From assembly GCA_032718475.1 (NCBI GenBank), contig JAUCBJ010002682.1, positions 19,793 to 83,792 of the forward strand: a stretch of 64,000 nt of DNA, written 5' to 3'. Positions 1-27,770 of this stretch are shown piece after piece. The notes under the pieces are model-generated. The model was not told where the DNA came from and ran no database searches. It worked only from the letters and a program-made list of their open reading frames with translations. Within the stretch, counting starts at the first letter, position 1. Each line of letters starts with the position of its first letter. This DNA is from Nemertoderma westbladi (Eukaryota; Animalia; Xenacoelomorpha). A program made the position numbers and the translations under genes.

Positions 1-967
1 CAGTTTGCTGCACCCTAACCAATGTGTATGCCTTGTACCGGTGTGCCTACGTCCTATCTGCGTACTAGTATCTGCCTGCGCTCTCTCTCCCCCCGTAGGA
101 ATATGAAGGTCTACTGCGGTTTTTCCTGAATCAAGACAGTACAGTCCCTATGATGTAATTTTGGGCTTACAGCGTGTCACTACGTCTACCTTTTATCTTT
201 TGGTCTTATACTTAGGTAGCAAGGATCGAACGCTGTCTAACCTTTCAGGCGATGGGCGAATAACTCTAAAATGGTATTGCGGGTTGTCTCTCGTCTACAT
301 TCCCGTGATGTTCCCGTTCATTGCTGCGGCCCGATCTCTAGCCGGCCATCCTGTCCCTGAGTTTGTTCACCGTAGTGAATTCATAGTAAAACAGAAAAGC
401 TGAGAGAATATTCTGACTTTATTACAGAAGACACAATTATAATACAATGTAATCTGAGAATAAACTAAGCACGACAGAGAGATTGATTATAAGAAGTTTG
501 TGTGAGTATAAAGTATACTAAAGTAGTAAACTAATGAACGAAATCGCACCTTTTTATACCAAATTTGTGCCGCAATCAATCGAGAAAATTCTCGATTGTT
601 CTATAGATTCTAACAAGGTTTTAAAGATAGCTATTGGTCCAGCTAATATATAACTTGCACGACATTGGTTACAATCAAATAACTACAGCCTTATTGGTAC
701 AGACAAATGCAATTAATTTGTAGCGGTTAATTTAAATGAGTTGAAATTCTGCACAAAAAATAATTCGCACTTACTAGGATTCGAACTCGATACCTACTAC
801 ACATATAATTTCCAACGCTCTACCAACTGAGCTACTGAACCACTTGACCGATGGGTGCACAATAGATAGAACCAATACTAATGAGAACTCAAAGCAATCT
901 TTACAAAGTTAATTCGAATAAAATAAAATTTTGAAAATCCACGGCATTTAGGGAATATAATTCTATA
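1..967 (-). repeat. 3' LTR (partial; continues beyond base 1)
   Basis: Matches the right-hand copy apart from a handful of substitutions/indels and a 15-bp duplication. Similarity ends at ...attctata (967), next to a short purine tract GGAGCGG on the minus strand (possible PPT). Minus-strand TATAAAAA at 558-551 and AATAAA at 423-418. Confidence 0.88.
755..841 (-). promoter_or_regulatory. tRNA-derived Pol III promoter module (A box, B box, T-run) in LTR U3
   Basis: Minus strand reads TAGCTCAGTTGGTAGAGC (A box and intact D arm) ... GAGTTCGAATCC (B box) ... TTTTTT. The acceptor and anticodon stems do not pair, so it is not a functional tRNA. The second copy at 15623-15702 is split by the insertion. 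Confidence 0.75.
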
Positions 968-1900
968 CCGCTCCATGAAAACAGGATATTATCGTGCATA
1001 AAATATACGGTTTTCACCAATAATCAATCAAACTATAGAATACTTAGGGCGTACTTACATATTTACAATTAAATTTCAAACAATACTTCCTTTTTACGTA
1101 ATGATTCGATACAAAAATAATTACAAATTCAAACTTTACGTAGTTAAGGCTTTACTAAGTAAGTACAATATAAATCTAAATTAAATTCACCAATATAAAT
1201 CTATTGCATCTCAGATATTGCATAAATTCAAACAATTACAAATACAAATAAATGAAAACAATAAGAAAGGCTCGCGAGTCTTCCATCTACTATTGCATCT
1301 CAAATATTGCATAAATTCAAGTAATTACAAATACTTTCGTACCTAAATGTAGATTGCATAAGTTTGGAATAATTACAAATATGAGTCTTTCTGAGCACAA
1401 AACTTTCTGACTATAAAACTTTCTAAATACAAAATAACACTTTACAAATGAAACTATAAGAAAGGCCCACGAGTCTTCCGTCTACTCTTACTTTCTGTTT
1501 CACTGTAAATACAAATACTACTTATAAAATATAAATTGCATAATATTCGGAACAATATAAATTGCATAAGCTCGGAATAATATAAATTGCATAAGTTCGA
1601 AATAATCACGTAAATATAAAATATAAATTCTTACTAAATATAAATCTTACTAAATATAAGTCTTTACTTAAATATAAATATAAACTGCATAAGTTTAGAA
1701 TAATATAAACCTTTTGCATCTCAAATATGAAACATAAATCTTTCAAATATAAGTTTCTTCTAAATATAAACTTTCTAAATTTCATAAATTCGGAACAATA
1801 CAAATTGCATAAGTTTTCTAAATATAAAACATATAATTCAAAATAAATCACAAATCATAAGAAAGGCCCACGAGTCTTCCGTCCACCCTTGCCCTCCCTT

Positions 1901-4900
1901 TTATCGCTTAGTAGATCGAGCCCTGCCGCGTCCTCGAAAACTGCGCACAGGTGACTTTGCTCGCGATATGGGACTAATGGGGCGAGTCACTGGTTTACTT
2001 GGGACGTTGAGAGACGGTGCGACTATTTCCTCACAAATTCGTCTATTTGGCATCCCAAAACCTCGACCAATTCCTCGTGACCGATCAGTTGTCGCTACAG
2101 TTGGTAGAACGTCTGGGAACGCGCGAGAAGTGGACGACGCAGACCCAAGAGTAGCTTGCGCCCCCTGTTGATCAGCTGGTGTATGTCCCGATCCTCCTAC
2201 CGGTTCTCTTGGAAGTGATACCGTATCCCGAGTAACTCGAATAGTCGGCTCAACTCCCTTGCGTTCTTCTACATTAATAATTTTCTTCAATTGTTGGCCC
2301 ACCTTCTGGACCCGTATGATCCTACCCTGTCCGTCCTCCCGAGGGTGACGTGCAGACGGCGCAACCGGAGTGGCTGATATATTTGTCGCCTCTAGGACCT
2401 CCTCTTCCTCGAATACGCTCGCTCGTATACGTTTGTGGTAAAACGCGGCTCGGTACGCCCATGCGACGGTTAACCAAGCTCCCTTATTCCGTTTTTCAGT
2501 TCGGAAACGATCGAATTCACCATACGTAATCCGATTAACGACTTTCTGAAAATTCCACGTGTTTTTGTTATCCGGGTGAATTTGTAACAGATACTCGCGC
2601 ACCACTCGGAATCCGCTGTCGTGGGGCAAAATATCGACAACCTCGATAAGTTCGTCATATTGGGGCATAGCGGAGATATATCCTTCCGACATCATCGTCT
2701 GGGGATTTACCGCCCAAAATCCGAGATGCGCTCTCATCGGAAACCGTCTTCTCTGTGCCGATACATGTTCGTCGGCTAAATCTTCCCACTCATCAAATAA
2801 CTTCCTCACGAGTTTTACAGATTCGTGTTCATAAGGTATGTCTCTCAGTTGGCATTCAGATGCTCTATGTCCCTTTATATTGCAGTAAGTACATTGAGCC
2901 ATAAATCTCCAGCAAGTATAAAAGGTATGAGACCCTTGATCCCCACACCATCCACAGATTAGCTGAGTCGTAGTAATGTGCTTTCCACTGCACTTTGCCA
3001 TATGATGTCCAGCGACGCCACATTTACTACACATCGTATTAGCAGGGTACCACACTCGTTCGTATATAAGATCTCCAATCGGTCGAGCGCTTCCTCCCAT
3101 ACTATAATCGTAATCATCTGGGTCTATGGGTTGGTAGGTTTCTGAAGGTTGTAGGCAAACTATAGCATCTGTTGCTTCAAGTTGTCGAATCTCCGTCTGA
3201 GATTTCTTCGGGAGGTTCCTTTCTATCTCAAGAAGTTCCTCTAAAGGATCGTCGGCGATCGTAGTAGTTACTTCGAATTCATCACCAAGGTGACCGATAG
3301 GCGCGCGCGTCTGCCGTGATTCTTCCGTAATCTCCACGATACGTTCTCCTTCATAGGGTAACAATGTAAACATAGATGGTCTTTCGATAAGAGATCCCGC
3401 ACAGCGAAGATACACGTCTCGAAATATACTAAATCCTGCTCGAGTAAAGGCATTACACTGAGCGTCGGAGTTGTAGAAGGGTTCAAGGAATCGTCTAAAC
3501 ACGTCGGTACGAATTCTCCCTTCCATGTAGAACGTATGATCTTCTCCGAGACAAAGTGGATGTCTTTTGAGAGTCCGAGACACAATGTCGGCGATTAGGC
3601 AAACATTCACTGACGACTCTATTGCTAAATAATATTGTAAGACCGCTCTTGGAGGTGACGTAATAGCCCAATACACGCATCCTCTCCATTTAAGCTGTGA
3701 TTCAAACTCACTCATATCTGGAGTATCACCTTCTCCATAAGTTTCAATATACTTGTTTCTCTTACCTTCCTTATAATCCCAATTGAATAACAGGTAGGAA
3801 ATGTATCCAGTTCCAGTCTTCTGAGTATTATACTCACGAAAATATCCCTGTTCTATAGACCACAGAATAAGAGGTCGAGTGTCGACGTATGGTGTCGGTA
3901 GTCGGTCATCGCTGTCCGTCATGCCGGCGAAGTCGCTAATTAAATCCTCCCTTACTCCTGATCCAACCTTTACAACAGTTTTATCTAAAATCATGTTTCT
4001 TACCATCTTCGGTAGCATTCTAGCGTCAATATTACAAGCTTGGTCCATCTTCTTTACTATATCGGTGATAAGATGGTGTCGCTTTGTATTCGCTGGAGGT
4101 ATCGGCATTCGTTTGTCGCTCCTCTGTCTACTGAAAACGTGCAGGACTCCGTCCGCCGCTCTAATCTGTATAGTCTTAGAAGTCAAACTCTGCTGATGAC
4201 TGCCGCCCTCGTTATCGTAAAACATATAACCGTTTTCCTGAAACGATCTAAACGTCCTAGTCCATTCATCCAACAATTCTTCCGAAGGTTGCCAAATCTT
4301 CTCTATATCCTTATCCTCATCGAAACGAATAACCTTACCTCGCCAATCTGCGGCAATATCCGTATCCGACTCGAAGGTTCCGGTTCCAATCCATAAACGA
4401 ATCGTCTTGGTTAGATATCCTTTTAGATTACTCGGAGCTATGTCGGCACCAGCTCTATCCAGTTCCTTAAAATCTTGGATATGAGGTGGAACGTTGTTCA
4501 CGACCTTTTGAGTAATATGTCTACGTAAATCATATATCTTACTCATATCGCTGAAAACAACTGCAGGAAGAAACTCCAAGTTTGAAATGATTTCTGGATG
4601 ATCCACGATGGGTATTTCGTACGTCGTATCCTGTCGGACTGGTATACTAATAGGGAAATTGAGTGTCGTACTCAATGGTTTCGTAGTTAAAGTACTATAT
4701 GGTTGCATTTCTCTTGGCCTCTCCGGGGATGCAATCTGTAATCTCTGAATAACGTTTTGAGCAAAGTTTATGCTCTCGAAAACTTCCGGTGTCATCTCCT
4801 TAGCTGAAGTTTGATCGTGTGACGTCCAATGGCAAGGTAGGCTCGCGAGTCTTCCACCCCATTCTTCCATCTCACCTTTCTCGAAAGCCTTGTAGGCTCT

Positions 4901-5626
4901 GTATAGGCTAAGAGCTTCTTTCTTTTCGCGGGTTGACTGATTCGCCTCGTCCAGCGTAAGTTCAAATACATCGGGTTCAACAACCTTAGGTGGGTAAATG
5001 ACAGTTTCTCCCGCCTTTGGTCCGGTCATAGCAAATGAATGATATGGATTCGATAAAGGATACCCTCCTTCCTGGTAGCGTAGTTGTTGATGATTCAAAC
5101 ACCTCGCCAATATCGGTTCGGGATTTTCCTTATTCAAACGCATCGGAATCGCATTTCGTTGTTCGCGCATACAAGAACCGCATTGATAATAAAGTTTATA
5201 AACTGAAAATTCTTCCTTGGTTTCTCTATCGTCCCCTCGAGTTCGTCTGTAAAGATGCATTCCATCGAATTCATCGCGTACCGCAGGCATAGGTTCATGC
5301 GCCTTTAGGTATTGCATGGTATGATACAAACGACTAATTTCAGTATCGGGGTCTTCGCTAATGTCTCCCGTATCACACAAAGCATCGTACGGGTAAAGTT
5401 CGTTGAAGGTTTGGCGCAAACTTTCGATTCTTTCGTTCAATGCGTTTTGCCTTCTCTTTAATACATTCGAGTCATATTTAGTTCTCGCGAGTTTCGCTGT
5501 ACTTTCCGATAATTCTTTTATACCAAATATAGTATAATCCTTGGCTCCAAATCTTTCGAATGGCGCTGCTGCCTCCTCTTGGATATCATATCCCCATCTC
5601 GGCTCTCCTTGTATCCCTTTCTCCAT
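1901..5626 (-). CDS. Retroelement accessory ORF2: DEDDy/RNase D/WRN-like 3'-5' exonuclease domain plus three CCHC-type zinc knuckles
   Basis: Uninterrupted 1241 aa. ExoI-like FYDNEG, TIQI, ExoII-like LPKMVRNMILDKTVVKVGSGVRED, YVDT, and ExoIII-like W..SPP...QYYLAIE (about 3600-4240). CSKCGVAGHHMAKC, CGWCGDQGSHTFYTC and CTYCNIKGHRASEC at about 2850-3030. Confidence 0.8.
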   Translation of the reverse strand: MEKGIQGEPRWGYDIQEEAAAPFERFGAKDYTIFGIKELSESTAKLARTKYDSNVLKRRQNALNERIESLRQTFNELYPYDALCDTGDISEDPDTEISRLYHTMQYLKAHEPMPAVRDEFDGMHLYRRTRGDDRETKEEFSVYKLYYQCGSCMREQRNAIPMRLNKENPEPILARCLNHQQLRYQEGGYPLSNPYHSFAMTGPKAGETVIYPPKVVEPDVFELTLDEANQSTREKKEALSLYRAYKAFEKGEMEEWGGRLASLPCHWTSHDQTSAKEMTPEVFESINFAQNVIQRLQIASPERPREMQPYSTLTTKPLSTTLNFPISIPVRQDTTYEIPIVDHPEIISNLEFLPAVVFSDMSKIYDLRRHITQKVVNNVPPHIQDFKELDRAGADIAPSNLKGYLTKTIRLWIGTGTFESDTDIAADWRGKVIRFDEDKDIEKIWQPSEELLDEWTRTFRSFQENGYMFYDNEGGSHQQSLTSKTIQIRAADGVLHVFSRQRSDKRMPIPPANTKRHHLITDIVKKMDQACNIDARMLPKMVRNMILDKTVVKVGSGVREDLISDFAGMTDSDDRLPTPYVDTRPLILWSIEQGYFREYNTQKTGTGYISYLLFNWDYKEGKRNKYIETYGEGDTPDMSEFESQLKWRGCVYWAITSPPRAVLQYYLAIESSVNVCLIADIVSRTLKRHPLCLGEDHTFYMEGRIRTDVFRRFLEPFYNSDAQCNAFTRAGFSIFRDVYLRCAGSLIERPSMFTLLPYEGERIVEITEESRQTRAPIGHLGDEFEVTTTIADDPLEELLEIERNLPKKSQTEIRQLEATDAIVCLQPSETYQPIDPDDYDYSMGGSARPIGDLIYERVWYPANTMCSKCGVAGHHMAKCSGKHITTTQLICGWCGDQGSHTFYTCWRFMAQCTYCNIKGHRASECQLRDIPYEHESVKLVRKLFDEWEDLADEHVSAQRRRFPMRAHLGFWAVNPQTMMSEGYISAMPQYDELIEVVDILPHDSGFRVVREYLLQIHPDNKNTWNFQKVVNRITYGEFDRFRTEKRNKGAWLTVAWAYRAAFYHKRIRASVFEEEEVLEATNISATPVAPSARHPREDGQGRIIRVQKVGQQLKKIINVEERKGVEPTIRVTRDTVSLPREPVGGSGHTPADQQGAQATLGSASSTSRAFPDVLPTVATTDRSRGIGRGFGMPNRRICEEIVAPSLNVPSKPVTRPISPISRAKSPVRSFRGRGRARSTKR

Positions 5627-6297
5627 AATTAGGGTGTAGTTACATAATCATTACTACTAGAGGGAATACAACAGAGTTTGTAGTTAGTTGTGAGGAGACG
5701 TGAGAGTTTCGTCTGCCCTTTGGGCTCGACAACGCTCTAACCTCCTACCCATAGCCTAAGATCTAGGGTTTCTTTAATGACACGCTGCTTCTTATCTAAA
5801 ATTTTTTGCCGAAATAAAAACGAATTTGGGCTAAACTGGCTGTGAGTCTAAAATACTCACTTTTTGATCCCAAACTATTATCAGAAAATAAGCAGTCAAG
5901 AATTAGTAATAAATATAGGGGAGTCTATTTTGTCGTAACTTATTGAAACAAGACCGTGTAAAATTTAATTAAAATTTTAAGAAAGGCTCGCAAGTCTTCC
6001 TCTCTTGTTTCTCTAATTTTAAGTTCCACCCGACTGTACCCTGAAATCTATTCACTGGAGAAAATTTTAAAAATTTTTTTTTTTTTTTTTTCAAATCCAA
6101 ATGGATTGTCTAAAATTTCGAAAATGTCTCAATATTGTGAGTTCCAAGTAGAATTCCATTTCTTATACCTACAAATCCCGCTCCTATGTGACACATAAGG
6201 GTACTACCCTCAATGTTCACATATAAAGACAATGGAATTCTACCGCTGTCCTTACTACGGTGTACAGGTACGTGGAAATCTATTTGTAAACTCCTAA

Positions 6298-9200
6298 TTA
6301 TTTACTAGTATTAGGTGGAGATTTGTAGTCTCCAGACTCGTTACGAGTCTCTTCAAGAAGTACGAGACGTTGAGTCGGTCTGTCTACTGTACGACCGTCA
6401 ATTGTCCGTACCGTCACAGTTCTTGTCACTCCATCCATAGATGGATGTGTGGCTAAAATGACACCTGTTATCCAGAAGCGTCTTTTTAGATTCACTTCTG
6501 CCAACAGCACGTGATCTCCCGGCTTTAATGCGCGGGTGTTATTGTACCAGTTTGTTCTGGCAGAAATAGAGGGCAAATAATGGTTTTGCCATATTTCCCA
6601 GAATTTGTTAGCCAGTAGTTGCGTGATTTTCCACGCTTTTCTACCGTAACTGTCGCTTTCTATTGGAATAGAAATCGGCGTTAATGTCGTCGGTGCCTGC
6701 ATAAGCAGGTGTGCCGGTGTTAAAGCAAACTGGGATTGTTTGTCATCGGGTACTAATACTATTGGTCTAGTATTTAGTATTGCCTCGATTTCAACAAACA
6801 ATGTTGTCAGTTGGTCGTCTGTTAATATGTGGTTTACTGGAATGACCTTTGCCATGGCTGTCTTTATAGATCTAATCAATCTCTCCCAGACTCCGCCTCT
6901 CCAAGGACTATCTGGAGGATTAAACTTCCAAACAATCTTGTGAGGTTGTAGTTCGTTCGAGATTTGATCATGATCTAATTTCTTAAAGGCTCTAGCAATC
7001 TCATTCCGAGCACCAACAAAGTTTGTCCCTTGGTCTGAGTACAAGCATTTTACTAGTCCGCGTCTAGCGATAAATCGCCGCAGTGCTAGTATAAACGCGT
7101 TGGTGGAAAGATCCATCACACGTTCAATGTGAACTGCCCTACTGGACATACATGTGAAAATCAGTCCCCAGCGTTTTACTAGTATGCGTCCACGTTTCGT
7201 ATGTATGGGACCAAAGCAATCAATTCCAGTCTCTGTAAAAGGTGGCCTGAATGCTTGAAGTCGTGCTTGTGGTAGTTCACTCATTTCTTGGGTACCTATT
7301 CTAGAATGTACCTTTTTACAAATAATACACGTACGTGTCACTGAACTTAATGCTTTACTGGGTCTAATTAATACAAATCTAGTACGTAAGTAGGAAAGAC
7401 AGTGGTGTCTTCCAGCGTGTTTTAGATGTAAATGTGCGTCCAGTATCATTGCACGTTGTAGTTCGTGATGTTGCGGTATTATTATTGGGTACCTAAAGTT
7501 TGTGTTAAAGTCAATGTTTTGAAGCCGAGATTTATGACAAATTAAGCCATTATAAATAATCGGACTCCAACTCAGTATTGGTGATGACTTGATTGATTGA
7601 CCTTGATTTATAGATGTGAATTCGCGCGCGAAATATCGCAGTTGATAATGGCGAATTAATTTTATCTCACACCTGTCAATCTCAGCCAATGTAAGTCGAC
7701 GTGTAAAGTCGCGTTTGCCTTTAACGTATTGTACAAAACGTACAATCCACGCTAATTTTCGGCAAGCGCTTGTCCAAGAATCTGTTAAGTTTACAATACG
7801 GTCGACGTAAGTATTTGTGACGTCATCAGGTAAGTCAATTGAGAATTTGGAAGGTTTTGAATTACTAGAAGGGCCCACGGGTCCGCCGGTAAGTATTCTC
7901 TTGTTGACTGTTGATCCGTCGGGGTCTACAAGTAATTTGTCCTTCTTTGTCTTCTTACCTTGATTGTCAGTACTTTGTAAGTCGATCGTTAATGGTGGTT
8001 TGAACTCTATGGGGTCAGCAGGTTTCGGTAGACTTATTTTCCTGCCGACATTAATCCCAGGTCTCACTATAGGTTGCAAGTTCGGTATGTCTCTTGAGCG
8101 CAAAGTAACACCTGTATTTACATTAGCGTAGGTACTACCCACATCTGTAATACATGAGGTTTCACCGTGCTTATGGATGCTCAAGTGTGTTAAAATTGGT
8201 AGTTTGTCAATACAAGGCCGCTCCAATAGGGAAACTGCGGCTTTATCGTTAGTCAATACATTACTAGTGTCTAGTCGACTGTCTAGTAATGTGTCTGGCG
8301 ATACGTCTGGTAACGTATCTGGTTGTTTGTCAATAGAAGGCCGCTCCAATAGAGAAACTGCGGCTTCACTGTTTGTCAGTGTGTTACTAACGTCTGGTGG
8401 AACATTTTGTGACATGTCTGTCAAAACGTCTGGTTGACCGTCTGGCAATATGTCTGGTGTAGAAAGGCTCGCAAGTCTTCCTCTCTTGACCTTTGAAGTT
8501 ATATCCTTCCATTTCGCCTTCGGTTTCTTCTTAAGTTTGTCCAATACAGCTTGTTCCACTTGCTGATTTCTCAACGCTTCATCATCGATATCGACGGGCA
8601 TTGTTGAGGTTGTTGGGGTAGGTAGACTCGCAAGCCTATCATCTGTCGTCGATGGAATCTCTAGCTGACTCGTCTTCTCCCCAAGTTCTAAACTCCGCTG
8701 GTGGGTTAGCTGCTCCTTGTGACTTATCATACTAGTTACACGTCTGTTATGTTTTGTCGACTGTAGTGTAGTATGGTTCACGTCGGGTGAGAAGGAATGA
8801 ATTGAATTTGTAGTTAATAAACTACATGTACTCTGTACATCGTCTTCCTCGTCACTTACGTCTAGTGTGCGCACAGGCGCTCGAGTATACCACCCTATCG
8901 GCGTTCTGCAGGCGTATGCGTTTCCCGCTACAACTGCCGATGGTCTGGTTTCCCACACCTGATGTAGGTTGAATTGGTCCGTCCCGATCAGCATTGCTAC
9001 CGATCTATAATTGACAGGACATTCGGGTACACCAAGGTGTCTGAAATACTTACGGTCCTCCAGAGATTGTTCCGGCACTGGACCTAGTAGGTTACTAAAG
9101 TCCTTCGTGGCCGCAAAGGTTAGATCTCTAAAGGGCAACAAAGACCTCTCCCTCTCGCTGTGTTGCGATTTTGGAAGAAGAGAGTCTAAGTCCAACTTAA

Positions 9201-12200
9201 CTCGTGTCACTGGTATTGCACGCTGTCCGTGCATACTACTTACTGTATAACTGACGTGCTTACCTTGTTTTAGATCCGTCACGACGTCAGCTATCTTTTC
9301 GTCCACGTAGCTATGGGATGAGGCTGAATCTAGAATCGCATAGATCCTCTTGCTCCCCTTTGTGCCAGTAACCTTGATCGGGATTACACTGAATCCCTTC
9401 AGTTGATCAGTAGTCAGGAGCGCGATCGACGGTTGTTCGTCTCCATTGGGATATTCGTCGTCGTCTTCTGATTCTTCGTCCGACGATCCGGATTGTTCTG
9501 AGAAGCAATCCTCAATATGTGTCACGAAGGTCGGAGTCGTTTTCGATTCTCGTTTTCGGTAGGCCGCATCACATCTCGCTGCTGCTTCCGGGTGTTCCCT
9601 GGCGAAGCGTTTCGTCGGCGTGTGGCTGTCTGTGTGGAGCAGACCGTCGTGGTTGCGTCCACAGGATGGACAAGTGTCGGTATTTGGGCAATCCTTACGG
9701 ACGTGTCCGTGTCGCGTACACCGCCAACAAGAGTCCAGTGGCCGTATCTGCAGCCGTCGTTCTTCCGAGTTCAACTCGCGAAATTGTCGACAACCTCGTA
9801 ACTTGTGACCAATATACCGCTTACCTAGATGCTCGCAGTATTGGCAGCCGTTGAAGTCGGTGCTGAGTTGCTGTCTCGTCTGTTTCGTCCCAATGGGCGC
9901 AGATACTCTATTACCGTCTGAGAATTGTCGTGATTCCGTCGGTGTGGCGTAAGTGGCCGTCTTAGTGGATGTTGTCTGGGGTTTTTGTCGGTTGGAGGAT
10001 GGCAGCGTGATTCCTTCTGCCACGATGTGCTGGTCGGTGTAGTTAGATCGAGTTTCTACTACCGCCTCCCTGGATATTAAAAGGTACACATCTTCTAATT
10101 TTAAGAATCCTCCCCGCTCCTCTCGCTGGTATTCGACCTTCCTCCACTCCCGACGAAGTCGATGGTGGAGTCGTCCTATTATCTTTAATAGGACTGTAGG
10201 GGTATTCCCGTAATCAAGTTGTCCAATTGATCTTAAGGTAGTGATAGCGTTCTTGATCTCGTCAGCTAGTTTTAGTAAGTCGACGGGTTTAGTGATAGCC
10301 CCTCCCTTACAGAGTTCCTCTATTACTGACCTGGCCATGCTCACTGTACCTCCGTATATCGAAGTTAAACGATCGTACGCTAGTTCGAAAGCGTCCGGTA
10401 CACCGACGAAAGTCTCCGCCAAACGTTTAGGTTCTCCTGACAACGTTTGGAGCAAGTAATTGAACTTCTCCCGTGATGTAAAGGCGCACACGGCGATCTG
10501 GGATTCGATATAGTCTACGAAGGTATGCCAGTGTTTTGAGCTACCGGAAAACTTCGGTGGTTGTTGTACCGGCAATCCCTGTCTGGCTGCGAATTTCGCT
10601 ATCTCCTCGGCAACGTTCAGAGTTTCGCGTCCTTGGTTGGTAACTTGGTTGATATCCCTTCTTGGCGCTTTTCCATGATACGATGTGGGGTTTGAAGGTA
10701 CCGGTCTTTGTGGTTCCTTCTGGTGTCTATTGTGTTCGAATTCGGAATTTCTCGAACTGTCGGTTTGAACTTCCTCCAGACGCTCCTCGATCTGAGCCAA
10801 CTTATTGACAACTGGTCGCAGAATGTCGGCGAACTGTTGTGTACTAATTGCGTCCGTTGGTTGTAACGCCTTTTGTGTTGGTGTATTCTGTGGAGGGTTG
10901 TCTGCAAAGGAGTTGTCTGAACGCTCGCGTTTATATTCATCGGCCGCCCCTGTTCTAAATACCTCGCGTTTCGGGTAATCCGATTCGCTCGAAGTACTAC
11001 TATCATCCGGATATGGTGGTCGACGTGCTCGCGTTCGTTGCGTCGTACGAATTCTAACATTCCGTTTCGGAACATCGTCCACTGATCTCCGTTGTTCGGT
11101 AGGCTCACAAGTCTTCCTCGAAGTCGTAGATTGCGATGTAAACTGGTTGAATGGTCGCGTCTCCACTGTTCTCCGTTGTTCGGTAGGCTCACAAGTCTTC
11201 CTCGAAGTCGTAGATTGCGATGTAAATTGGTTGAACGGTGGGCGAATGACAGCATTTGAAACAACTGGCCTTGTTGGTCGAAACGTCATTGGGTAAGCGT
11301 AGTGTGTAACGGGTTTAGGTGTCGACGGTGGACTCACCTGTTTTGTCGTCAGTAGCGCAGGTCCGGTCAATAAACTACTACGATCCGTAATCGGTGGGTT
11401 ACTTACCTTGACTTTCGGAATGGGCGACGACGTTGCTCTTGAAGGTATAAACTTGTCCGGAATAACAAACCTGTGTTCCGTCACACCATGGATAGGAGAA
11501 ATATCACTACTACCCGCAATCGAAACAGGTTCCTTTGTCGTAACCGGTGCAAACATATGAGTTACCTGTGGGAATCGTTGACACACGTCCTTTACTAATT
11601 GTCGTTCCCGTCCGGGTGCTCCTACGCTTCCTTCCTTCTTCCGTTCCTGAATTTGGCGATGTCTTACCTCTAACTGGTCCAAATCATGTCCGTCACGAGA
11701 TCTCATCGATCGATCGCGGGCCTTTTGATCCAGATCTTCCTCAGCGTTCGCTAATTCTCTCGCCTTCTTCTCAAGTTCGAAATGAAGTTTAGCTGTCTTC
11801 TCTCGTTGTTCCGTTTGTCGTTGTTGCGCCTCAAATTCTGCTTGTCGTATAGCGGATTGAGCCTTTATTTGCCGTGTTTTCATTTCGGCCCGTGCTTCCG
11901 AAACTAACCTGTCTCGTTCTAATTCCGCCGCTGCCGCTGCCGCTTGTCGCTCTGACTCTGCCGCTGCCGCTGCCGCTTGTCGCTCTGACTCTGCCGCTGC
12001 CGCTGCCGCTTGTCGCTCTGACTCTGCCGCTGCCGCTGCCGCTTGTCGGGCAATGTCTACCTCTAACCTTTCTACTTCAGCTGCTTCTAATTCAGCTTGT
12101 TCCTGTAGATGAGAGATTCTCGCTATATTCGCAACGCGTAGCTTCTCTTCCTCTACTGCTGCTTGCATCACTAGAAGTTGGGCTTGTTCCTCCATTTCTC

Positions 12201-13050
12201 GTCGTTGTCGGTAGAATTCTTGCTGTTGTCGAGCAACTTCTGACGTAACCATACTTCCCTCGCAGATTTCGCTACGAATACTTACCAGCGATTGATTTAG
12301 TATTCCCGGTGCCGATTCGATTTGTGCGAATGAAGTTTCCCTCGTATATTCCGGCACGGTTTCCAAATCGCCGACGTCTTCGCCGCACATGCGTAAGTGG
12401 TCCGTCAGGTGTTTTAATTGTCCATCCAGTCGGTACAGTTCCTGTTCTTCCTCGGGTTGTAATAATTCGTCCGAAACTGACTCACCTAACAACTGGTCCG
12501 CTTGTTCCTGTTGTATCTGCCTAATCGTCGACTTAAACTGAATCAGTTTCTCTCTAGCGATCATTAGTTTCTCGAGGATTCTAAGTTGAGTGTCCATGTC
12601 CTGTCTCTGTCTAGCTAGATCTTGTAGACCAATTAGGTTATCTACGGACTTGTGTACTCTAGTTTGCACTCTAACCTGGAGGGTGTAGAACTCGAATCGA
12701 GACATCGGAGCGGTCAACTCGTCTAATATGCGATGACCTTCTCCAATACTCCTGGTTATATGCGCCATGTAACCTCCGACGCTTCTAACCACACTTTCCT
12801 GGCTTCCTGCTGAACTTACCATGTCCGTTTCCCTGTATCTAGGTTGCGGAACAGTTAGAAAGTCCTCGGTCCTGCCGTCGCCTCGTACTACGGCATCCGG
12901 TACTCCCGTTGGATGTACTGGTGACGCACACGGTGTAGGTTCGGTAGGCTCGCGAGTCTTCCCCTGTTGTCCTTCCGCTGCTGACTTATCCGCGTCACAC
13001 GAGTCATAGTCGGTAGGTGTATTCTTTGTATAGTCTTGTTTGTCACTCAT
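6298..13050 (-). CDS. BEL/Pao gag-protease-integrase polyprotein lacking RT and RNase H
   Basis: 2250 aa. Coiled-coil N-terminus; gag PPKFSG..W..F; BEL triple Zn knuckle (CQYC..H...C, CWRC...H...C, CPSC..H...LH); protease AILDSAS and TPIGW; then a low-complexity spacer; then SW...RKLAWIVRF, HHCC, GIDCFGP, FTCMSSRAVHIE, SDQGTNF, GGVWERLIRSIK, LNTRP, LTPAHLL. No Y(V/M)DD-type RT motif in context. Confidence 0.93.
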   Translation of the reverse strand: MSDKQDYTKNTPTDYDSCDADKSAAEGQQGKTREPTEPTPCASPVHPTGVPDAVVRGDGRTEDFLTVPQPRYRETDMVSSAGSQESVVRSVGGYMAHITRSIGEGHRILDELTAPMSRFEFYTLQVRVQTRVHKSVDNLIGLQDLARQRQDMDTQLRILEKLMIAREKLIQFKSTIRQIQQEQADQLLGESVSDELLQPEEEQELYRLDGQLKHLTDHLRMCGEDVGDLETVPEYTRETSFAQIESAPGILNQSLVSIRSEICEGSMVTSEVARQQQEFYRQRREMEEQAQLLVMQAAVEEEKLRVANIARISHLQEQAELEAAEVERLEVDIARQAAAAAAESERQAAAAAAESERQAAAAAAESERQAAAAAAELERDRLVSEARAEMKTRQIKAQSAIRQAEFEAQQRQTEQREKTAKLHFELEKKARELANAEEDLDQKARDRSMRSRDGHDLDQLEVRHRQIQERKKEGSVGAPGRERQLVKDVCQRFPQVTHMFAPVTTKEPVSIAGSSDISPIHGVTEHRFVIPDKFIPSRATSSPIPKVKVSNPPITDRSSLLTGPALLTTKQVSPPSTPKPVTHYAYPMTFRPTRPVVSNAVIRPPFNQFTSQSTTSRKTCEPTEQRRTVETRPFNQFTSQSTTSRKTCEPTEQRRSVDDVPKRNVRIRTTQRTRARRPPYPDDSSTSSESDYPKREVFRTGAADEYKRERSDNSFADNPPQNTPTQKALQPTDAISTQQFADILRPVVNKLAQIEERLEEVQTDSSRNSEFEHNRHQKEPQRPVPSNPTSYHGKAPRRDINQVTNQGRETLNVAEEIAKFAARQGLPVQQPPKFSGSSKHWHTFVDYIESQIAVCAFTSREKFNYLLQTLSGEPKRLAETFVGVPDAFELAYDRLTSIYGGTVSMARSVIEELCKGGAITKPVDLLKLADEIKNAITTLRSIGQLDYGNTPTVLLKIIGRLHHRLRREWRKVEYQREERGGFLKLEDVYLLISREAVVETRSNYTDQHIVAEGITLPSSNRQKPQTTSTKTATYATPTESRQFSDGNRVSAPIGTKQTRQQLSTDFNGCQYCEHLGKRYIGHKLRGCRQFRELNSEERRLQIRPLDSCWRCTRHGHVRKDCPNTDTCPSCGRNHDGLLHTDSHTPTKRFAREHPEAAARCDAAYRKRESKTTPTFVTHIEDCFSEQSGSSDEESEDDDEYPNGDEQPSIALLTTDQLKGFSVIPIKVTGTKGSKRIYAILDSASSHSYVDEKIADVVTDLKQGKHVSYTVSSMHGQRAIPVTRVKLDLDSLLPKSQHSERERSLLPFRDLTFAATKDFSNLLGPVPEQSLEDRKYFRHLGVPECPVNYRSVAMLIGTDQFNLHQVWETRPSAVVAGNAYACRTPIGWYTRAPVRTLDVSDEEDDVQSTCSLLTTNSIHSFSPDVNHTTLQSTKHNRRVTSMISHKEQLTHQRSLELGEKTSQLEIPSTTDDRLASLPTPTTSTMPVDIDDEALRNQQVEQAVLDKLKKKPKAKWKDITSKVKRGRLASLSTPDILPDGQPDVLTDMSQNVPPDVSNTLTNSEAAVSLLERPSIDKQPDTLPDVSPDTLLDSRLDTSNVLTNDKAAVSLLERPCIDKLPILTHLSIHKHGETSCITDVGSTYANVNTGVTLRSRDIPNLQPIVRPGINVGRKISLPKPADPIEFKPPLTIDLQSTDNQGKKTKKDKLLVDPDGSTVNKRILTGGPVGPSSNSKPSKFSIDLPDDVTNTYVDRIVNLTDSWTSACRKLAWIVRFVQYVKGKRDFTRRLTLAEIDRCEIKLIRHYQLRYFAREFTSINQGQSIKSSPILSWSPIIYNGLICHKSRLQNIDFNTNFRYPIIIPQHHELQRAMILDAHLHLKHAGRHHCLSYLRTRFVLIRPSKALSSVTRTCIICKKVHSRIGTQEMSELPQARLQAFRPPFTETGIDCFGPIHTKRGRILVKRWGLIFTCMSSRAVHIERVMDLSTNAFILALRRFIARRGLVKCLYSDQGTNFVGARNEIARAFKKLDHDQISNELQPHKIVWKFNPPDSPWRGGVWERLIRSIKTAMAKVIPVNHILTDDQLTTLFVEIEAILNTRPIVLVPDDKQSQFALTPAHLLMQAPTTLTPISIPIESDSYGRKAWKITQLLANKFWEIWQNHYLPSISARTNWYNNTRALKPGDHVLLAEVNLKRRFWITGVILATHPSMDGVTRTVTVRTIDGRTVDRPTQRLVLLEETRNESGDYKSPPNTSK

Positions 13051-15702
13051 TTCGGTAGTTGTAAGTCAAGTAAAGTGAGTGTCAAAGTATCGAGTTTTAC
13101 CGTATTTATACAAAACGGTACTAATTACAGTCTTATAAAATTAGCCTACCGGCCGATTTTATAGCAGATGGATAAAATTAGCCTAAAACGGCCAATTTTA
13201 CAGCAAATAAATGTCACGGAATAAGTATATAATAAAATTAGCCTAGCGGCCAATTTTATAACAAATAAATCGGATAACGATATGCGTTATCAAAAGGTAA
13301 ATTAAATACAATAATACGGACTAATTCAGCAATGAACAAAGAAATCATACGGAATGCATAAATACTTGAGACAGTGGAACCCACAATAATTTTAACTAAT
13401 ACGGTAATGCCTAACTTATTTATGCAACTTTTCGAACTCACCCACTCCAATAATTCTCCAGAAAAACAGATTCCCAGATACAAACCGGACGTGAACCTTT
13501 CCGTTTTTAACGTTGCGGACGAAACGCGATTTTCCCAACCAAAGTTGTTGAGTTATCTATCTCCCAAACTTGCTAAACACGGTCTTGCTCCCGTTACAGT
13601 CTAGAAATGAGTTCTGAATCCTGAAAAAACAAAAGAGTTAGGTTTTACTTTACGAAAATTTTGTACCGGTACAATATGGTATTTAAACCCCTTTAAACAC
13701 CGGTATTCAATTCCAAAATATTTTACACGCGGTTCAAATCAAATTTTTATTTCAAAAAATTAGCACTCAGCTAATCAAATACGAATTTTTACCTCAAAAT
13801 ACAAAATTTTCAAATAACTTTAGTCCTACCGAACCGTAGTTCAGTAAAACATATTCCTACTAATTTAGGAAATATGTTAAAATAATCATATTCCTACTAA
13901 TTGAAGAGATACGCCTATTCCTACTATTGGAAGAGACGGTAACAATACCTGCAATATCTTACTGTAAAGTTTGTAAATCAAATCATAAATCCGACCTTCT
14001 CACCAAAACAGTAAACTCTAAGTAAGCGAATATATTGCAGTATTGATCTCTTATAACCGGTGAGGCAGAAAACAGTCTACGAGCAGACAAACTTCGATAA
14101 AACAAAATCCCGCGCAGCGAATCCTAAAATCAGGCTGACTCACTGACGGACTAAGGGGCTCGTATACTTTGCCGCGGTGTGATTTATATGGTTGGGCAAA
14201 GAGACGCTAGCTAGGTACAGGCAGAGATTTGGAGATGTCTAACTAGCGGGCAAAGCACAGTACGGACAAAGTTAATTTTATATATTTCGAGGTGTAAATA
14301 ATTTCTAACGCGCGTGTTAATTCTGAATGGTCAAAACAGTTTTGCTCCTTCACATATATAATTACTGGGTACGGTGTACATTTACGAATATTCTAATTTT
14401 GTAACTTGTAGGTCCAATACTCACGAATGATAAGGTTCCTTCCCCTCTTGCGTATTTCCAGGACTCAAATTCAGGCATAAGGTTAATACTACGCCCAGAA
14501 TTCGGCAATTTTAGGTACCAGGTCCCTGATACTAAGAAGAGATGTGTTAGTGTACTACTGTAGGCGTACGGGTACTAATAGCTATCCTGGCTCCTATCTA
14601 GAATTTTAGTCACCCAGGTAGTCCGGGTAACTTCCTATTAGGGCGTTGGCGGGGACACGGTAGATGTTAGTATATCCCTGATAGCCTCAATTTATTTGCG
14701 CCTAGTGTAAACTGCCCTACCGCCTGAACGGTACAATCCCAATTCAGGTGAAAACACAGCAACCCCCCTAGCCTACAAGTTCTGATGTAATGGACACTGT
14801 CGTACTGCAAATAGTCGCACACGCACCTGTACTTAGCAAGAGTTAAGCGTACAGTTTGCTGCACCCTAACCAATGTGTATGCCTTGTACCGGTGTGCCTA
14901 CGTCCTATCTGCGTACTAGTATCTGCCTGCGCTCTCTCTCCCCCCGTAGGAATATGAAGGTCTACTGTGGGTTTTTTCCTGAATCAAGACAGTACAGTCC
15001 CTATGATGTAATTTTGGGCTTACAGCGTGTCACTACGTCTACCTTTGATCTTTTGGTCTTATACTTAGGTAGCAAGGATCGAACGCTGTCTAACCTTTCA
15101 GGCGATGGGCGAATAACTCCAAAATGGTATTGCGAGTTGTCTCTCGTCTACATTCCCGTGATGTTCCCGTTCATTGCTGCGGCCCGATCTCTAGCCGGCC
15201 ATCCTGTCCCTGAGTTTGTTCACCGTAGTGAATTCATAGTAAAACAGAAAAGCTGAGAGAATATTCTGACTTTATTACAGAAGACACAATTATAATACAA
15301 TGTAATCTGAGAATAAACTAAGCACGACAGAGAGATTGATTATAAGAAGTTTGTGTGAGTATAAAGTATATACTAAAGTAGTATACTAAAGTAGTAAACT
15401 AATGAACGAAATCGCACCTTTTTATACCAAATTTGTGCCGCAATCAATCGAGAAAATTCTCGATTGTTCTATAGATTCTAACAAGGTTTTAAAGATAGCT
15501 ATTGGTCCAGCTAATATATAACTTGCACGACATTGGTTACAATCAAATAACTACAGTCTTATTGGTACAGACAAATGCAATTAATTTGTAGCGGTTAATT
15601 TAAATGAGTTGAAATTCTGCACAAAAAATAATTCGCACTTACTAGGATTCGAACTCGATACCTACTACACATATAATTTCCAACGCTCTACCAACTGAGC
15701 TA

Positions 15703-17637
15703 GGGCTGGGGTAAAACAGACTGTAAACAAGGGGGGAAAAGAATTACGCGGAAAAATGACCAGAGAGGGAGGAAAAACGCAGAGAGAAAGGAAAAACGCA
15801 ATAATGTATTTTTCTACCATACATATTTTTATTAGAATTATTATACTTTGTAAATATTGAAACATCAATATTAAGTATGAGAACATGTAATATACATAAT
15901 AGAGCATTGTACATTATACAGTAACTTATACAAATTTAACTTATTCAACAAATAATATATTATTCTTTACGTCTAACAACTATCAACGTAGGCTATTCTA
16001 CCCCTAAAAGTCTGTTTACACGTGGAAACTTTTAGATCAACTTTCTCGGCAAAATAGCAACTTTTTTTGGAAAAACTTAATTTAATCACTGTTTACACGT
16101 GGCAACTTTACCAGCAACATGGCCGGCAACTTTTAGAGCAACTTGGCTAGTTTGACTGTAAAATAGTGGGTCATTTTATCTACTAGCTATTTTTTGATAA
16201 TTTAATTTGATTATCCCGCTTTAATTCGCCAACGCAAATTCCTTCACGTTGCCGTCAAAGTTGAGCAACTTTTACGGCAATTTTTTTCAGCAACTTACGT
16301 GTTTACACGGAGCAACTTGATCGGCAACCTGGTTTGCTCTACAAGTTGCCGAGAAAGTTGCTCTAAAAGTTGCCACGTGTAAACATGCCTTAAGGCAAGG
16401 ATATGCTCATTGCTCATCTCAAAGATCCATTAGTTTTCCAATAATTTAATTTAAAACTAATAATAATACGATATGGAACTCTGATTCCTCTGCTGACGTA
16501 AAACATAAAAAATCTAAAATACAGTACCCTTTTCGAAATAGGTCACCTTCTAAAATATTAAATTAAAGTACACTGTAAACAATCCATCAAACATAGATCT
16601 TACCAATTTTCCATAACCTTTTCCATCCAATATTTTATATTTTATGTATTTCCTATCTCGACTCATTAGTTTAGTTTTATATACCTGGATCAGCATCGGA
16701 ACTCCAGTGAAACAATTGATTGCGCTGTAGATTAACTTAGGATAATTAATTATTTCCCTATCAGCAACAACAGTAACAATCTCACACCTCACAATATTCA
16801 CATAATAGTAATACCCCCCCCCCCCCCCCCTTTTTTTGCAAGGACTACACACCACCCCTACCTGCCCAGCACTCCCAGACAATACATTGGGCTATAATAC
16901 TAGCCACGCCATTGTCCAAAGTATTATTGTAACTTAACTTTTAATATTGCAATTATACAATATACTGTATATATTACTCTATATGTGCAATGTGAGTATC
17001 GGATTACCAAATAACAATAAATTTTAAACAATTGTCTTCTTTAGTCTAAAATTCGCAACTGTTCGGTGGTCCACCCACACGAACAACACCATGTAGTACT
17101 AAAACCTCTAGGCCTACAACTACATGCTCTAAAACCCCAAAAATGACCCCCCCCGCTAAATGGCAGGTCTCCGTTTGCTAATTCCCTTATCAAAACACGG
17201 TACTCATGGATGCATTTGAAGTCATGACACATTACTGAAAGTTTATTATTTTACTCATAAGTATAGACAACTATATCATTTATTTGTCAATATAACACGA
17301 TTAACGGACTCGTTTAATTAAACGTAACGTAAATCTTTAATGAAATTTAAAAATTCCTTCCAAATCCTTGCCTGTAATCAATAATTAATTAAAAGTTTAG
17401 TTGTTTTGTTGGGTTAACTTAGCAGCCTATCCAAGTACATGATTTCCCATCTCCTCAACCAGGGGAACTACTATATAGTTTAAACTATGTAAGCTATTTA
17501 TAGCAGCCAATAGAAAGCCGGGTTTTTCCTACCATCCACCTAAGCAAGCTACTCCCTTCCTCACCTCCACGCTACTCGCGACCTTAGCTCTAGCCTACTC
17601 TCAACCTTAGATTTACCACAGTCCTTAGGTATTCTGC
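15703..17637. mobile_element. Non-coding insertion without TIRs, in the tRNA-like A box, flanked by an 8-bp duplication CTGAGCTA
   Basis: Absent from the left LTR. CTGAGCTA occurs at 15695-15702 and 17638-17645 but only once (827-834) in the empty copy. Confidence 0.88.
16008..16390. mobile_element. PIF/Harbinger-type MITE nested in the insertion
   Basis: About 45-bp imperfect TIRs (aagtctgtttacacgtggaaacttttagatcaactttctcggcaa / ttgccgagaaagttgctctaaaagttgccacgtgtaaacatgcct), with TAA on both sides (16005-16007, 16391-16393). Confidence 0.8.
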
Positions 17638-17778
17638 CTGAGCTACTGAACCACTTGACCGATGGGTGCACAATAGATAGAACCAATACTAATGAGAACT
17701 CAAAGCAATCTTTACAAAGTTAATTCGAATAAAATAAAATTTTGAAAATCCACGGCATTTAGGGAATATAATTCTATA

Positions 17779-20700
17779 AGTGTAATGAAATAGTTAGTTA
17801 TGGTACAACTATAACACTAGTGTAATGAAATAGTTAGTTATGGTACAACTATAACACTAGTGTAATTAAATAGTTATGGTACAACTATAACACTAGTGTA
17901 ATGAAATAGTTATGGTACAACTATAACACTAGTGTAATGAAATAGTTATGGTACAACTATAACACTAGTGTAATGAAATAGTTATGGTACAACTATAACA
18001 CTAGTGTAATGAAATAGTTATGGTACAACTATAACACTAGTGTAATGAAATAGTTATGGTACAACTATTACACTAGTGTAGTTAAATAGTTATGGTACAA
18101 CTATTACACTAGTGTAATTAAATAGTTATGGTACAACTATAACACTAGTGTAATGAAATAGTTAGTTATGGTACAACTATAACACTAGTGTAATTAAATA
18201 GTTATGGTACAACTATAACACTAGTGTAATGAAATAGTTATGGTACAACTATAACACTAGTGTAGTTAAATAGTTATGGTACAACTATAACACTAGTGTA
18301 ATTAAATAGTTATGGTACAACTATAACACTAGTGTAATGAAATAGTTAGTTATGGTACAACTATAACACTAGTGTAATGAAATAGTTAGTTATGGTACAA
18401 CTATAACACTAGTGTAATTAAATAGTTATGGTACAACTATAACACTAGTGTAATGAAATAGTTATGGTACAACTATAACACTAGTGTAATTAAATAGTTA
18501 GTTATGGTACAACTATAACACTAGTGTAATTAAATAGTTAGTTATGGTACAACTATAACAATAGTGTAATGAAATAGTTATGGTACAACTATTACACTAG
18601 TGTAATTAAATAGTTATGGTACAGCTATAACACTAGTGTAATGAAATAGTTAGTTATGGTACAACTATTACACTAGTGTAATGAAATAGTTAGTTATGGT
18701 ACAACTATAACACCAGTGTAATGAAATAGTTATGGTACAACTATAACACTAGTGTAATGAAATAGTTATGGTACAACTATAACACTAGTGTAATGAAATA
18801 GTTATGGTACAACTATAACACTAGTGTAATGAAATAGTTATGGTACAACTATAACACTAGTGTAATGAAATAGTTATGGTACAACTATTACACTAGTGTA
18901 GTTAAATAGTTATGGTACAACTATAACACTAGTGTAGTTAAATAGTTATGGTACAACTATAACACTAGTGTAATGAAATAGTTATGGTACAACTATAACA
19001 CTAGTGTAATGAAATAGTTAGTTATGGTACAACTATAACACCAGTGTAATGAAATAGTTAGTTATGGTACAACTATAACACTAGTGTAATTAAATAGTTA
19101 TGGTACAACTATAACACTAGTGTAATGAAATAGTTATGGTACAACTATTACACTAGTGTAGTTAAATAGTTATGGTACAACTATAACACTAGTGTAGTTA
19201 AATAGTTATGGTACAACTATAACACTAGTGTAATTAAATAGTTATGGTACAACTATGACACTAGTGTAATTAAATAGTTATGGTACAACTATAACACTAG
19301 TGTAATGAAATAGTTATGGTACAACTATAACACTAGTGTAATTAAATAGTTATGGTACAACTATAACACTAGTGTAATGAAATAGTTATGGTACAACTAT
19401 AACACTAGTGTAATGAAATAGTTATGGTACAACTATAACACTAGTGTAATGAAATAGTTATGGTACAACTATAACACTAGTGTAATGAAATAGTTATGGT
19501 ACAACTATAACACTAGTGTAATGAAATAGTTACGGTACAACTATAACACTAGTGTAATGAAATAGTTATGGTACAACTATTACACCAGTGTAATGAAATA
19601 GTTATGGTACAACTATAACACTAGTGTAATTAAATAGTTATGGTACAACTATAACACTTGTGTAATGAAATAGTTATGGTACAACTATAACACTAGTGTA
19701 ATGAAATAGTTATGGTACAACTATTACACCAGTGTAATTAAATAGTTATGGTACAACTATAACACTAGTGTAATTAAATAGTTATGGTACAACTATAACA
19801 CTAGTGTAATGAAATAGTTATGGTACAACTATAACACTAGTGTAATGAAATAGTTATGGTACAACTATAACACTAGTGTAATGAAATAGTTATGGTACAA
19901 CTATAACACTAGTGTAATGAAATAGTTATGGTACAACTATTACACTAGTGTAGTTAAATAGTTATGGTACAACTATAACACTAGTGTAGTTAAATAGTTA
20001 TGGTACAACTATAACACTAGTGTAATGAAATAGTTAGATATAGTACAACTATAACACTAGTGTAATTAAATAGTTAGTTATGGTACAACTATAACACTAG
20101 TGTAATGAAATAGTTATGGTACAACTATAACACTAGTGTAATGAAATAGTTATGGTACAACTATTACACCAGTGTAATTAAATAGTTATGGTACAACTAT
20201 AATACTAGTGTAATTAAATAGTTATGGTACAACTATAACACTAGTGTAATTAAATAGTTATGGTACAACTATAACACTAGTGTAATTAAATAGTTATGGT
20301 ACAACTATAACACTAGTGTAATTAAATAGTTATGGTACAACTATAACACTAGTGTAATTAAATAGTTATGGTACAACTATAACACTAGTGTAATTAAATA
20401 GTTATGGTACAACTATAACACTAGTGTAATTAAATAGTTATGGTACAACTATAACACTAGTGTAATTAAATAGTTATGGTACAACTATAACACCAGTGTA
20501 ATGAAATAGTTATGGTACAACTATTACACTAGTGTAATTAAATAGTTATGGTACAACTATAAAACTAGTGTAATGAAATAGTTAGTTATGGTACAACTAT
20601 AACACTAGTGTAATTAAATAGTTAGTTATGGTACAACTATAACACTAGTGTAATTAAATAGTTATGGTACAACTATAACACCAGTGTAATGAAATAGTTA

Positions 20701-20855
20701 GTTATGGTACAACTATAACACTAGTGTAATTAAATAGTTAGTTATGGTACAACTATAACACTAGTGTAATTAAATAGTTACGGTACAACTATTACACTAG
20801 TGTAATGAAATAGTTAGTTATGGTACAACTATAACACTAGTGTAATGAAATAGTT
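17779..20855. repeat. 36/40-bp AT-rich tandem satellite (about 80 copies)
   Basis: Unit agtgtaatgaaatagttatggtacaactataacact with an optional extra gtta; contains the palindrome acactagtgt. Confidence 0.97.
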
Positions 20856-20988
20856 CGAGTACAAATATAACTAAAATTGTAATTAATAAAGGCCAATTTA
20901 TTTAAATCAAATTCCCATTTGTGCACAAAATTACATACCGGAGCATTTAATAAGATTACAGTTCTCTTCTCTTTAAGTGCTGTAATTT

Positions 20989-27573: not shown

Positions 27574-27770
27574 AGAAGTGTAACGAAGGTAGAAATAGCC
27601 GGACACACGCAATTATTCGCGAGCAGGGCGTATTTAAACTCGTCCTCGCAGACAACGTTTTCCGCAAAGTTTACGTGGAATTTGTTTTCTGCGCGGAGTA
27701 TTTGAACGTAGAGGGGACAGTTTGGAGCGAAATCTTTAACCGCCCAGGACCGAAGAATAGTTGCCTGGTC
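27553..27770 (-). CDS. KCNT: Slo2/KCNT channel exon (RCK1)
   Basis: [73 protein letters not shown]; ttttcag/gtaagt. Confidence 0.94.

Follow-up and report, generated by a model that had tools for sequence, protein, structure and literature searches.

Thirteen copies of a short near-palindrome along a BEL/Pao-type retrotransposon without a recognizable reverse transcriptase

How might a retrotransposon that encodes no reverse transcriptase (RT) get its RNA copied, and could part of the answer be written along that RNA? The question is raised by a 64,000-nucleotide stretch of the Nemertoderma westbladi genome (contig JAUCBJ010002682.1, positions 19,793 to 83,792 of the forward strand; hereafter the window). 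Its first part holds an element that is, on its sequence features, a BEL/Pao-type long terminal repeat (LTR) retrotransposon in a non-autonomous, derived form. On the minus strand, which is its sense strand, the element runs from a 5' LTR through a stretch resembling a primer-binding site (PBS), two open reading frames (ORF1 and ORF2), an AT-rich 3' untranslated region (UTR) and a stretch resembling a polypurine tract (PPT) to a 3' LTR that leaves the window at its edge. Dispersed along it is a 20-nt near-palindrome with a YGYG centre, which on the plus strand follows the pattern AGGCYCRCRAGTCTTCC.

Copies of the motif and constraint on its nucleotides

The internal region carries 13 copies of this motif over 11.7 kb (Table 1). 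The original prediction had counted ten, all of which are present: the pattern matches exactly at nine of the nine positions given for it, always on the plus strand (none of 100 dinucleotide shuffles produced a match), and these nine had been placed correctly, with three in the 3' UTR, one in ORF2, one between the ORFs and four in ORF1. Allowing three mismatches adds the variant at 8621, the tenth of the original copies, and a site at 3299. The true count is nevertheless higher, since a position weight matrix (PWM) scan of both strands returned additional 20-mers at 3296 and 7868, and a scan with the arms alone added one at 7394, whose score was equalled in 1% of element-length simulations (chance 0.01). 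Seven copies lie in ORF1, two in ORF2 and four in non-coding sequence; neighbouring copies are never more than 2477 nt apart, and their orientation is biased 12:1.

The motif had not been noticed outside the element, and within the window this holds. The element's minus strand has the core GAC.YGYG.GCC 11 times, its plus strand and the stretch 14011-64000 not at all (null mean 0.015), and neither the PWM nor a covariance model found a copy outside 1265-12962. The covariance model recovered its 12 training copies and matched the 7394 copy weakly (E 0.86), with a best E of 0.87 outside the element. This control is smaller than it appears, because satellite makes up about 28 of the 50 kb outside the element.

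The coding copies are read in two phases, phase 0 giving GRLASL and phase 1 giving KT[RC]EPT, as originally described. Two reading frames together with the non-coding copies argue for constraint on the nucleotides, as had been proposed, and we rejected constraint on the protein, given coding copies in two frames and four copies that encode nothing. Conservation drops to near background beyond the edges of the 20-mer, and most flanks are unrelated between copies, with a shared history evident for the copies at 11098 and 11182, those at 5981 and 8462, and the three UTR copies with their AT-rich flanks. Decay of CpG was also rejected as the main source of the YGYG loop, as the element shows no CpG depletion (observed/expected 1.17-1.31) and the changes all fall on one strand. 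In an unbiased scan of spaced words the motif ranked below AT-rich words, so this test is insensitive. Population variants showed no significant deficit in the motif sites: none of the 40 listed among 777 fell inside a site (about 0.7 expected), and, in a separate set, one of six listed substitutions did so.

On the sense strand, pairs 1, 4, 5, 7 and 8 of the potential stem are canonical in all 13 copies, pair 2 in 12 and pair 3 in seven, and pair 6 is A·C in 11. The conserved A·C of the originally proposed eight-position stem thus stands, but the stem is weaker than was supposed: pair 3 is a further mismatch, A·A, in four of the nine exact copies, and on the sense strand these nine 20-mers fold at only -0.4 to -2.0 kcal/mol (antisense, -2.8 to -4.9). 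The YGYG loop is kept in 12 of 13 copies, with G2 and G4 invariant in those 12. The loop-closing pair 8 is complementary throughout (U-A in eight copies, U-G in two, and G-C, C-G and A-U in one each). Double changes have occurred three times at this pair (G-C, C-G and A-U) and once at pair 4 (G-C). In the 12-copy alignment the covariation score was 0.230, which seven of 500 shuffles reached, against 0.153 for shuffled alignments, and slid controls gave at most 0.107.

Pairing between the arms, as first suggested, is therefore supported, more clearly by the three new copies than by the one at 8621 that had been offered as a stem-covarying variant. That copy lies three letters from an inverted copy and five to nine from a copy in the same orientation. 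Because inversion produces its changes at pairs 2 and 6, we do not count them as independent covariation, although its sense loop still reads YGYG. The copy at 7868 compensates on both sides of a retained A·C, an arrangement that correction by template switching would be expected to erase. The only common variant in the three UTR copies, 1868 C>T, turns a U-G pair into U-A and accounts for 78% and 95% of depth in two runs, being one of just six listed substitutions and so of low power.

Table 1. Features of the element and copies of the motif (positions in the window)
Feature	Position	Strand	Remarks
3' LTR	1..967	-	cut by window edge; against 5' LTR over 1-833: 828 matches, 5 mismatches, 17 gap columns
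PPT-like purine-rich stretch	968..974	-	adjoins 3' LTR
Motif copy	1265..1284	-	3' UTR; loop CGCG
Motif copy	1460..1479	-	3' UTR; loop CGUG; pair 8 U-G
Motif copy	1861..1880	-	3' UTR; loop CGUG; pair 8 U-G here, U-A in most read depth
ORF2	1901..5647	-	1248 aa; likely DEDDy-type exonuclease region ~4255-3430; three CCHC-type knuckles ~3031-2850
New copy	3296..3315	-	ORF2 linker; compensatory pair 8 (G-C); A·C kept; loop CGCG
Motif copy	4836..4855	-	ORF2 N-terminal part; loop CGCG
Motif copy	5981..6000	-	between ORFs; loop UGCG
ORF1	6298..13065	-	2255 aa stop to stop; DUF1759 gag, Cys/His knuckles, protease-like region, linker, integrase with DUF5641
New candidate copy	7394..7413	-	integrase zinc-binding region; same arms, perfect 8-bp stem, pair 8 A-U; atypical loop CCAC
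New copy	7868..7887	-	compensatory pairs 4 (G-C) and 8 (C-G); A·C kept; loop CGUG
Motif copy	8462..8481	-	linker replacing RT; loop UGCG; 28 nt identical to 5981 copy
Inverted or arm-swapped copy	8621..8640		linker replacing RT; sense loop UGCG
Motif copy	11098..11117	-	ORF1 linker; loop UGUG; second unit of 84-nt duplication
Motif copy	11182..11201	-	ORF1 linker; loop UGUG; unit of 84-nt tandem duplication
Motif copy	12943..12962	-	ORF1 N-terminus; loop CGCG
PBS-like stretch	13992..14006	-	starts TGG; coordinates approximate; no tRNA matched to putative PBS
5' LTR	14010..17778	-	~1.83 kb, inner edge approximate; split by 1.9-kb insertion at ~15702-17630

The element, its missing RT and its second reading frame

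ORF1 has Pfam matches to DUF1759 (E 4e-11), DUF5641 (E 1e-20) and an integrase zinc finger, and also encodes knuckles; its protease is indicated by a homologous alignment and a D-S-A motif only. Its relatives by blastp are 11 distant BEL polyproteins, to which the integrase is 26-37% identical and which align to residues 761-1392 and 1738-2240 only. No Pfam match to RT or RNase H was obtained, and the RT region of the homologues found no tblastn match in the window at E 0.1, which bears out the earlier claim that the element has no RT. In the place of RT and RNase H, ORF1 has a linker of about 350 aa (~8889-7857) that contains three of the 13 motif copies. Contigs from three DNA sequencing runs cover the element in 30 of 30 bins, this linker included and with many variants, some of the contigs being less than 90% alike, which suggests an abundant RT-less family; read depth in these runs is not copy number. 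The insertion in the window is young, as judged from the five differences in 833 positions between the compared parts of its LTRs.

Some joints between contigs skip 2.0-2.1 kb of ORF2, including the exonuclease-like region (3342-5487), or 7.8 kb that includes ORF1 (5656-13442), and run X3 is far deeper below position 3460, suggesting derivatives with internal deletions in which the four motif copies nearest the 3' end are retained. ORF1 contains in-frame tandem duplications, a 33-nt one in an Ala-rich coil (11927-12048) and a 123-nt repeat in the RT-replacing linker (8197-8434). The LTR begins with TATAG on the sense strand (961-967 and 17772-17778) instead of TG, and the 3' LTR runs out of the window before its outer end. 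The 5' leader (13133-13261 and 13845-13935) holds repeated AAAATTAGCC...GGCC..TTTTA inverted units and three ATTCCTACTA repeats; these are candidate leader structures distinct from the motif. In the 3' UTR, nine ATTGCATMW words lie on one strand within degenerate repeats (1200-1815); they resemble C/EBP-type sites or may be a second RNA motif.

No close relative of ORF2 was found: there was no match among 5512 candidates, nor among 6881 searched with a two-sequence alignment, both sets being restricted to near lengths, and 1.84 billion representative proteins yielded two weak matches. A distant homologue, P0015 (E 2e-5, 27% identity), can be aligned with ORF2 over both its middle part and its knuckles. 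The Atlas clusters closest to P0015 are PF01612 exonucleases, with zf-CCHC in the top one (feature score 0.87, a lead only); a tblastn search with P0015 against plasmids and phages gave nothing useful. ORF2 itself matches DnaQ weakly (E 0.032), and AlphaFold models gave no usable fold (pLDDT 30). From these matches, and from acidic residues that we take to be the Exo I-III motifs, the middle region is likely a DEDDy exonuclease. Cys/His knuckles are encoded in both ORF1 and ORF2.

What the motif may do

We tentatively favour, at somewhat below even confidence, a reading in which the copies are multivalent stem-loop tags with G-x-G loops that zinc knuckles read and that select the RT-less RNA into particles. 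The 13 near-palindromes would form small stem-loops on the genomic RNA of the element; as the naked hairpin is marginal, folding probably needs protein. The loops would be bound by the CCHC knuckles of Gag, and possibly of ORF2, and the multivalent tag would select the element's RNA into particles that receive RT from a helper element. An element that has Gag, protease and integrase yet lacks RT must presumably share particles with such a helper, and under these circumstances multiple tags would favour its own RNA. The number and spread of the copies, their independence of frame, the matched changes in the arms, the 12:1 orientation and the absence of RT and RNase H support this reading; sense-RNA folding, the binder, the helper and the packaging role are inferred, and packaging or dimerisation is the best inference for the motif, not a result. 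A more elaborate version, which we consider unlikely, would have each hairpin serve twice, as a tag for knuckles to bind and as a zipper for pairing and co-packaging with a helper genome, with the exonuclease-knuckle protein of ORF2 as reader, in an encoded hitch-hiking system.

Precedents exist for parts of this proposal (papers are cited by PMC number). Nucleocapsid knuckles of human immunodeficiency virus (HIV) bind GGAG and GGUG loops (PMC3759924), and many RNA viruses and hepatitis B virus (HBV) carry dispersed stem-loops with a common loop motif and varied affinity (PMC6281560, PMC8472981).

Several observations weigh against the tag reading. No copy lies in the 5' leader (from ORF1 to the PBS) or in the LTRs, and packaging signals of Ty1 and retroviruses sit in the 5' leader (PMC3681743). 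Sense hairpins reach only -0.4 to -4.2 kcal/mol in 12 of 13 copies (the one at 7394 has -7.1). The mean in-context pairing probability reaches 0.4 in three of 13 sense copies against eight of 13 antisense copies, and forcing the sense hairpin in context costs 0.2-6.8 kcal/mol. Non-canonical stem cells number 18 of 104 on the sense strand and 16 of 104 on the antisense strand, a tally that picks neither. Shuffle tests are inflated because the copies are related paralogues, and on seven distinct rows the p values are 0.047 for pair 8 and 0.14 for pair 4; for these reasons we regard the evidence of covariation between the arms as real but modest. The copy at 7394 breaks the loop and A·C rules, and that at 8621 is inverted. 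Comparison of the knuckles with nucleocapsid structures was not significant (E 0.18 or worse), and neither a relative with DNA nor a helper was found in the viral contigs or metagenomes searched. With energies favouring the antisense strand and the stem tally nearly equal, computation does not settle which strand folds. We prefer the sense strand because it is the one packaged, because its loop exposes the invariant G2 and G4, and because energy models score A·C like any other mismatch, although in its protonated form it can imitate a G-U pair.

Alternatively, the copies might serve as RNA-RNA pairing sites, the weak hairpins opening into extended duplexes with a second genome, another site or a helper RNA and so aligning or condensing RNAs at up to 13 points. 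We give this rather little weight, although the four loops seen (CGCG, CGUG, UGCG and UGUG) are exactly the N-G-N-G tetramers that are self-complementary when G-U is allowed. The loop is wobble-self-complementary in 12 of 13 copies, and a Watson-Crick hexamer palindrome is present in four. Sense homoduplexes (-8 to -24 kcal/mol) are far more stable than the hairpins, the duplex less two hairpins averaging -14.3 on the sense and -10.1 on the antisense strand. The central hexamer of the 3296 copy, GCGCGC, is the dimer loop of HIV-1 subtype B (PMC8472981), and Ty1 has palindromic PAL motifs (PMC3681743). A stable duplex is, however, expected of any near-palindrome, and the UGUG copies do no better than background (39th percentile); the restriction of the loop to pyrimidines is also expected from the transition bias of the change spectrum, which alone could explain it. 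The invariant A·C would place two mismatches in every duplex, and the loop of the 7394 copy is unpairable. Less probable in our view is a double-stranded DNA dyad, two 7-bp arms around a 6-bp spacer, to which a protein of the host or of the element would bind once the copy is integrated, for instance in anti-silencing like that at VANC targets. The inverted copy at 8621 would suit a dyad, as would hairpins that are marginal as RNA and nearly nil as DNA and a 7394 copy that keeps the arms with a different spacer. The YG steps could reflect the equivalence of T and 5-methylcytosine. Against a dyad, the element shows no CpG depletion. Sequence-specific binders of short internal motifs are known to be encoded by transposable elements (PMC5735166); the recognizable parts of ORF2, however, are exonuclease-like and knuckle-type, and nine of 13 copies lie in ORFs, with one tandem pair only, rather than in non-coding tandem arrays. 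A dyad gives no reason for the four matched double changes or for the orientation bias.

The antisense strand might instead be the working one, as a G-U-containing hairpin in an antisense RNA or as miR-7 target sites that destabilise host antisense transcripts. It folds better than the sense strand, with pair 6 canonical in 12 of 13 copies; no antisense transcript is known, however, and we think this improbable. The likeness to miR-7-5p (PMC6864997) is striking: compared by eye, the microRNA agrees with 12 of the 13 letters that open the UGUG copies on the sense strand. A 7-mer seed match, GTCTTCC, is present on the antisense strand in ten of 13 copies. It is found only on the non-coding strand (there is no GGAAGAC anywhere on the plus strand), it is broken in the copies at 3296, 7868 and 8621 where the dyad is nonetheless kept, and it leaves the invariant G-C-C and the final C of the other arm unexplained. 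More doubtful still is a neutral origin of the copies, through template switching and local duplications as the element was reverse transcribed. In its favour, the pair at 11098 and 11182 is one 84-nt duplication, the 5981 and 8462 copies share 28 nt, and the UTR copies share AT-rich flanks. Eight of the nine coding copies lie outside conserved domains, and the absence of a significant variant deficit also fits neutrality. Most flanks are nevertheless unrelated around a sharply bounded 20-mer, two reading frames are used by the copies within two open ORFs, and compensation is seen around a retained mismatch.

Relation to known systems and other features of the window

The closest functional parallels to the tag reading are the dispersed packaging signals of single-stranded RNA viruses and HBV (MS2; HBV RGAG loops; PMC6281560, PMC8472981, PMC7612645), which likewise consist of many modest stem-loops in coding and non-coding sequence with a short shared loop motif; here the stem sequence is highly conserved as well, the host is an RT-less LTR retrotransposon, and binding is only predicted. 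The GGAG and GGUG loops of HIV-1 psi, the SL1 palindrome and the PAL motifs of Ty1 (PMC3759924, PMC8472981, PMC3681743) resemble the motif in a G-x-G tetraloop, a self-complementary centre (in most copies here only if wobble is allowed) and CCHC proteins encoded in cis, but they are few and clustered at the 5' end, in contrast to 13 near-identical copies with none in the 5' leader. VANDAL elements with VANC (PMC5735166) also accumulate short internal motifs and encode an extra protein; they are plant DNA transposons whose double-stranded DNA targets lie in non-coding tandem repeats, whereas the copies here are mostly coding, dispersed and covarying in their arms.

The element shares with BEL/Pao (Belpaoviridae) its LTRs, DUF1759 gag, knuckles, protease-like region and integrase with DUF5641, and differs in the linker that replaces RT and RNase H, the additional exonuclease-like ORF and an LTR that starts with TA. 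Extra DEDDy ORFs are known in rotifer LTR elements (PMC5408684, PMC5718144). Among these, bdelloid Juno and Vesta (PMC5408684) have a DEDDy-type ORF3, an extra downstream ORF with a likely 3'-5' exonuclease, but belong to another LTR superfamily; ORF2 here has 1248 aa and three knuckles, and the likeness is by type of ORF. Non-autonomous BEL elements have been described before (PMC7642597). In the literature searched (most subscription journals and Repbase being outside it), we found no description of a dispersed multi-copy hairpin in an LTR retrotransposon and none of an RT-less BEL element with a DEDDy ORF.

Viral contigs contained no match to the motif pattern and no relative of the element. 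In metagenomes, 53 loci carried the 20-mer, with one match each; three of the 53 had a second, relaxed match, and neither tblastn nor blastn showed homology between any of them and the element. As single, non-homologous occurrences we read these as chance. Searched against Rfam, none of the motif sites gave a match with E up to 5.

If the more elaborate version, with tag and zipper in one, is true, a hitch-hiking system would be written as a wobble-palindromic hairpin along the whole RNA, with three copies in the very linker that replaces RT, and would be of a kind not described for LTR retrotransposons in the literature searched. How LTR retrotransposons choose RNA for packaging was poorly known as of 2013 (PMC3681743), and the route by which RT-less elements reach high abundance is even less clear. 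With 13 copies of a well-delimited 20-nt tag, and two candidate knuckle proteins to read it, both questions could be tested on short RNAs and small domains.

The LTRs and the rest of the window hold further features. Part of the LTR (760-835, with a split copy near 15630-15701) is tRNA-derived and shows, on the minus strand, words resembling an A box and a B box; ARAGORN reported no tRNA there. In the 5' LTR it is split at the tRNA-like A box by the 1.9-kb insertion (15695-17638), which is flanked by an 8-bp duplication, TAGCTCAG on the minus strand, and has no obvious terminal inverted repeats. Since Dada transposons, which target tRNA, have been described with the same duplication (PMC3706591), the insertion may be a non-autonomous Dada-like element. 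A stretch resembling a miniature inverted-repeat transposable element, with 50-nt inverted arms, lies inside it at 16003-16395. Beyond the element are tandem arrays with units of 36, 51, 54, 24 and 39 nt (17795-20886, 22678-27574, 30744-48007, 55118-56982 and 58866-60075, respectively); the 36-nt array adjoins the 5' LTR, and the 54-nt array extends over 17 kb.

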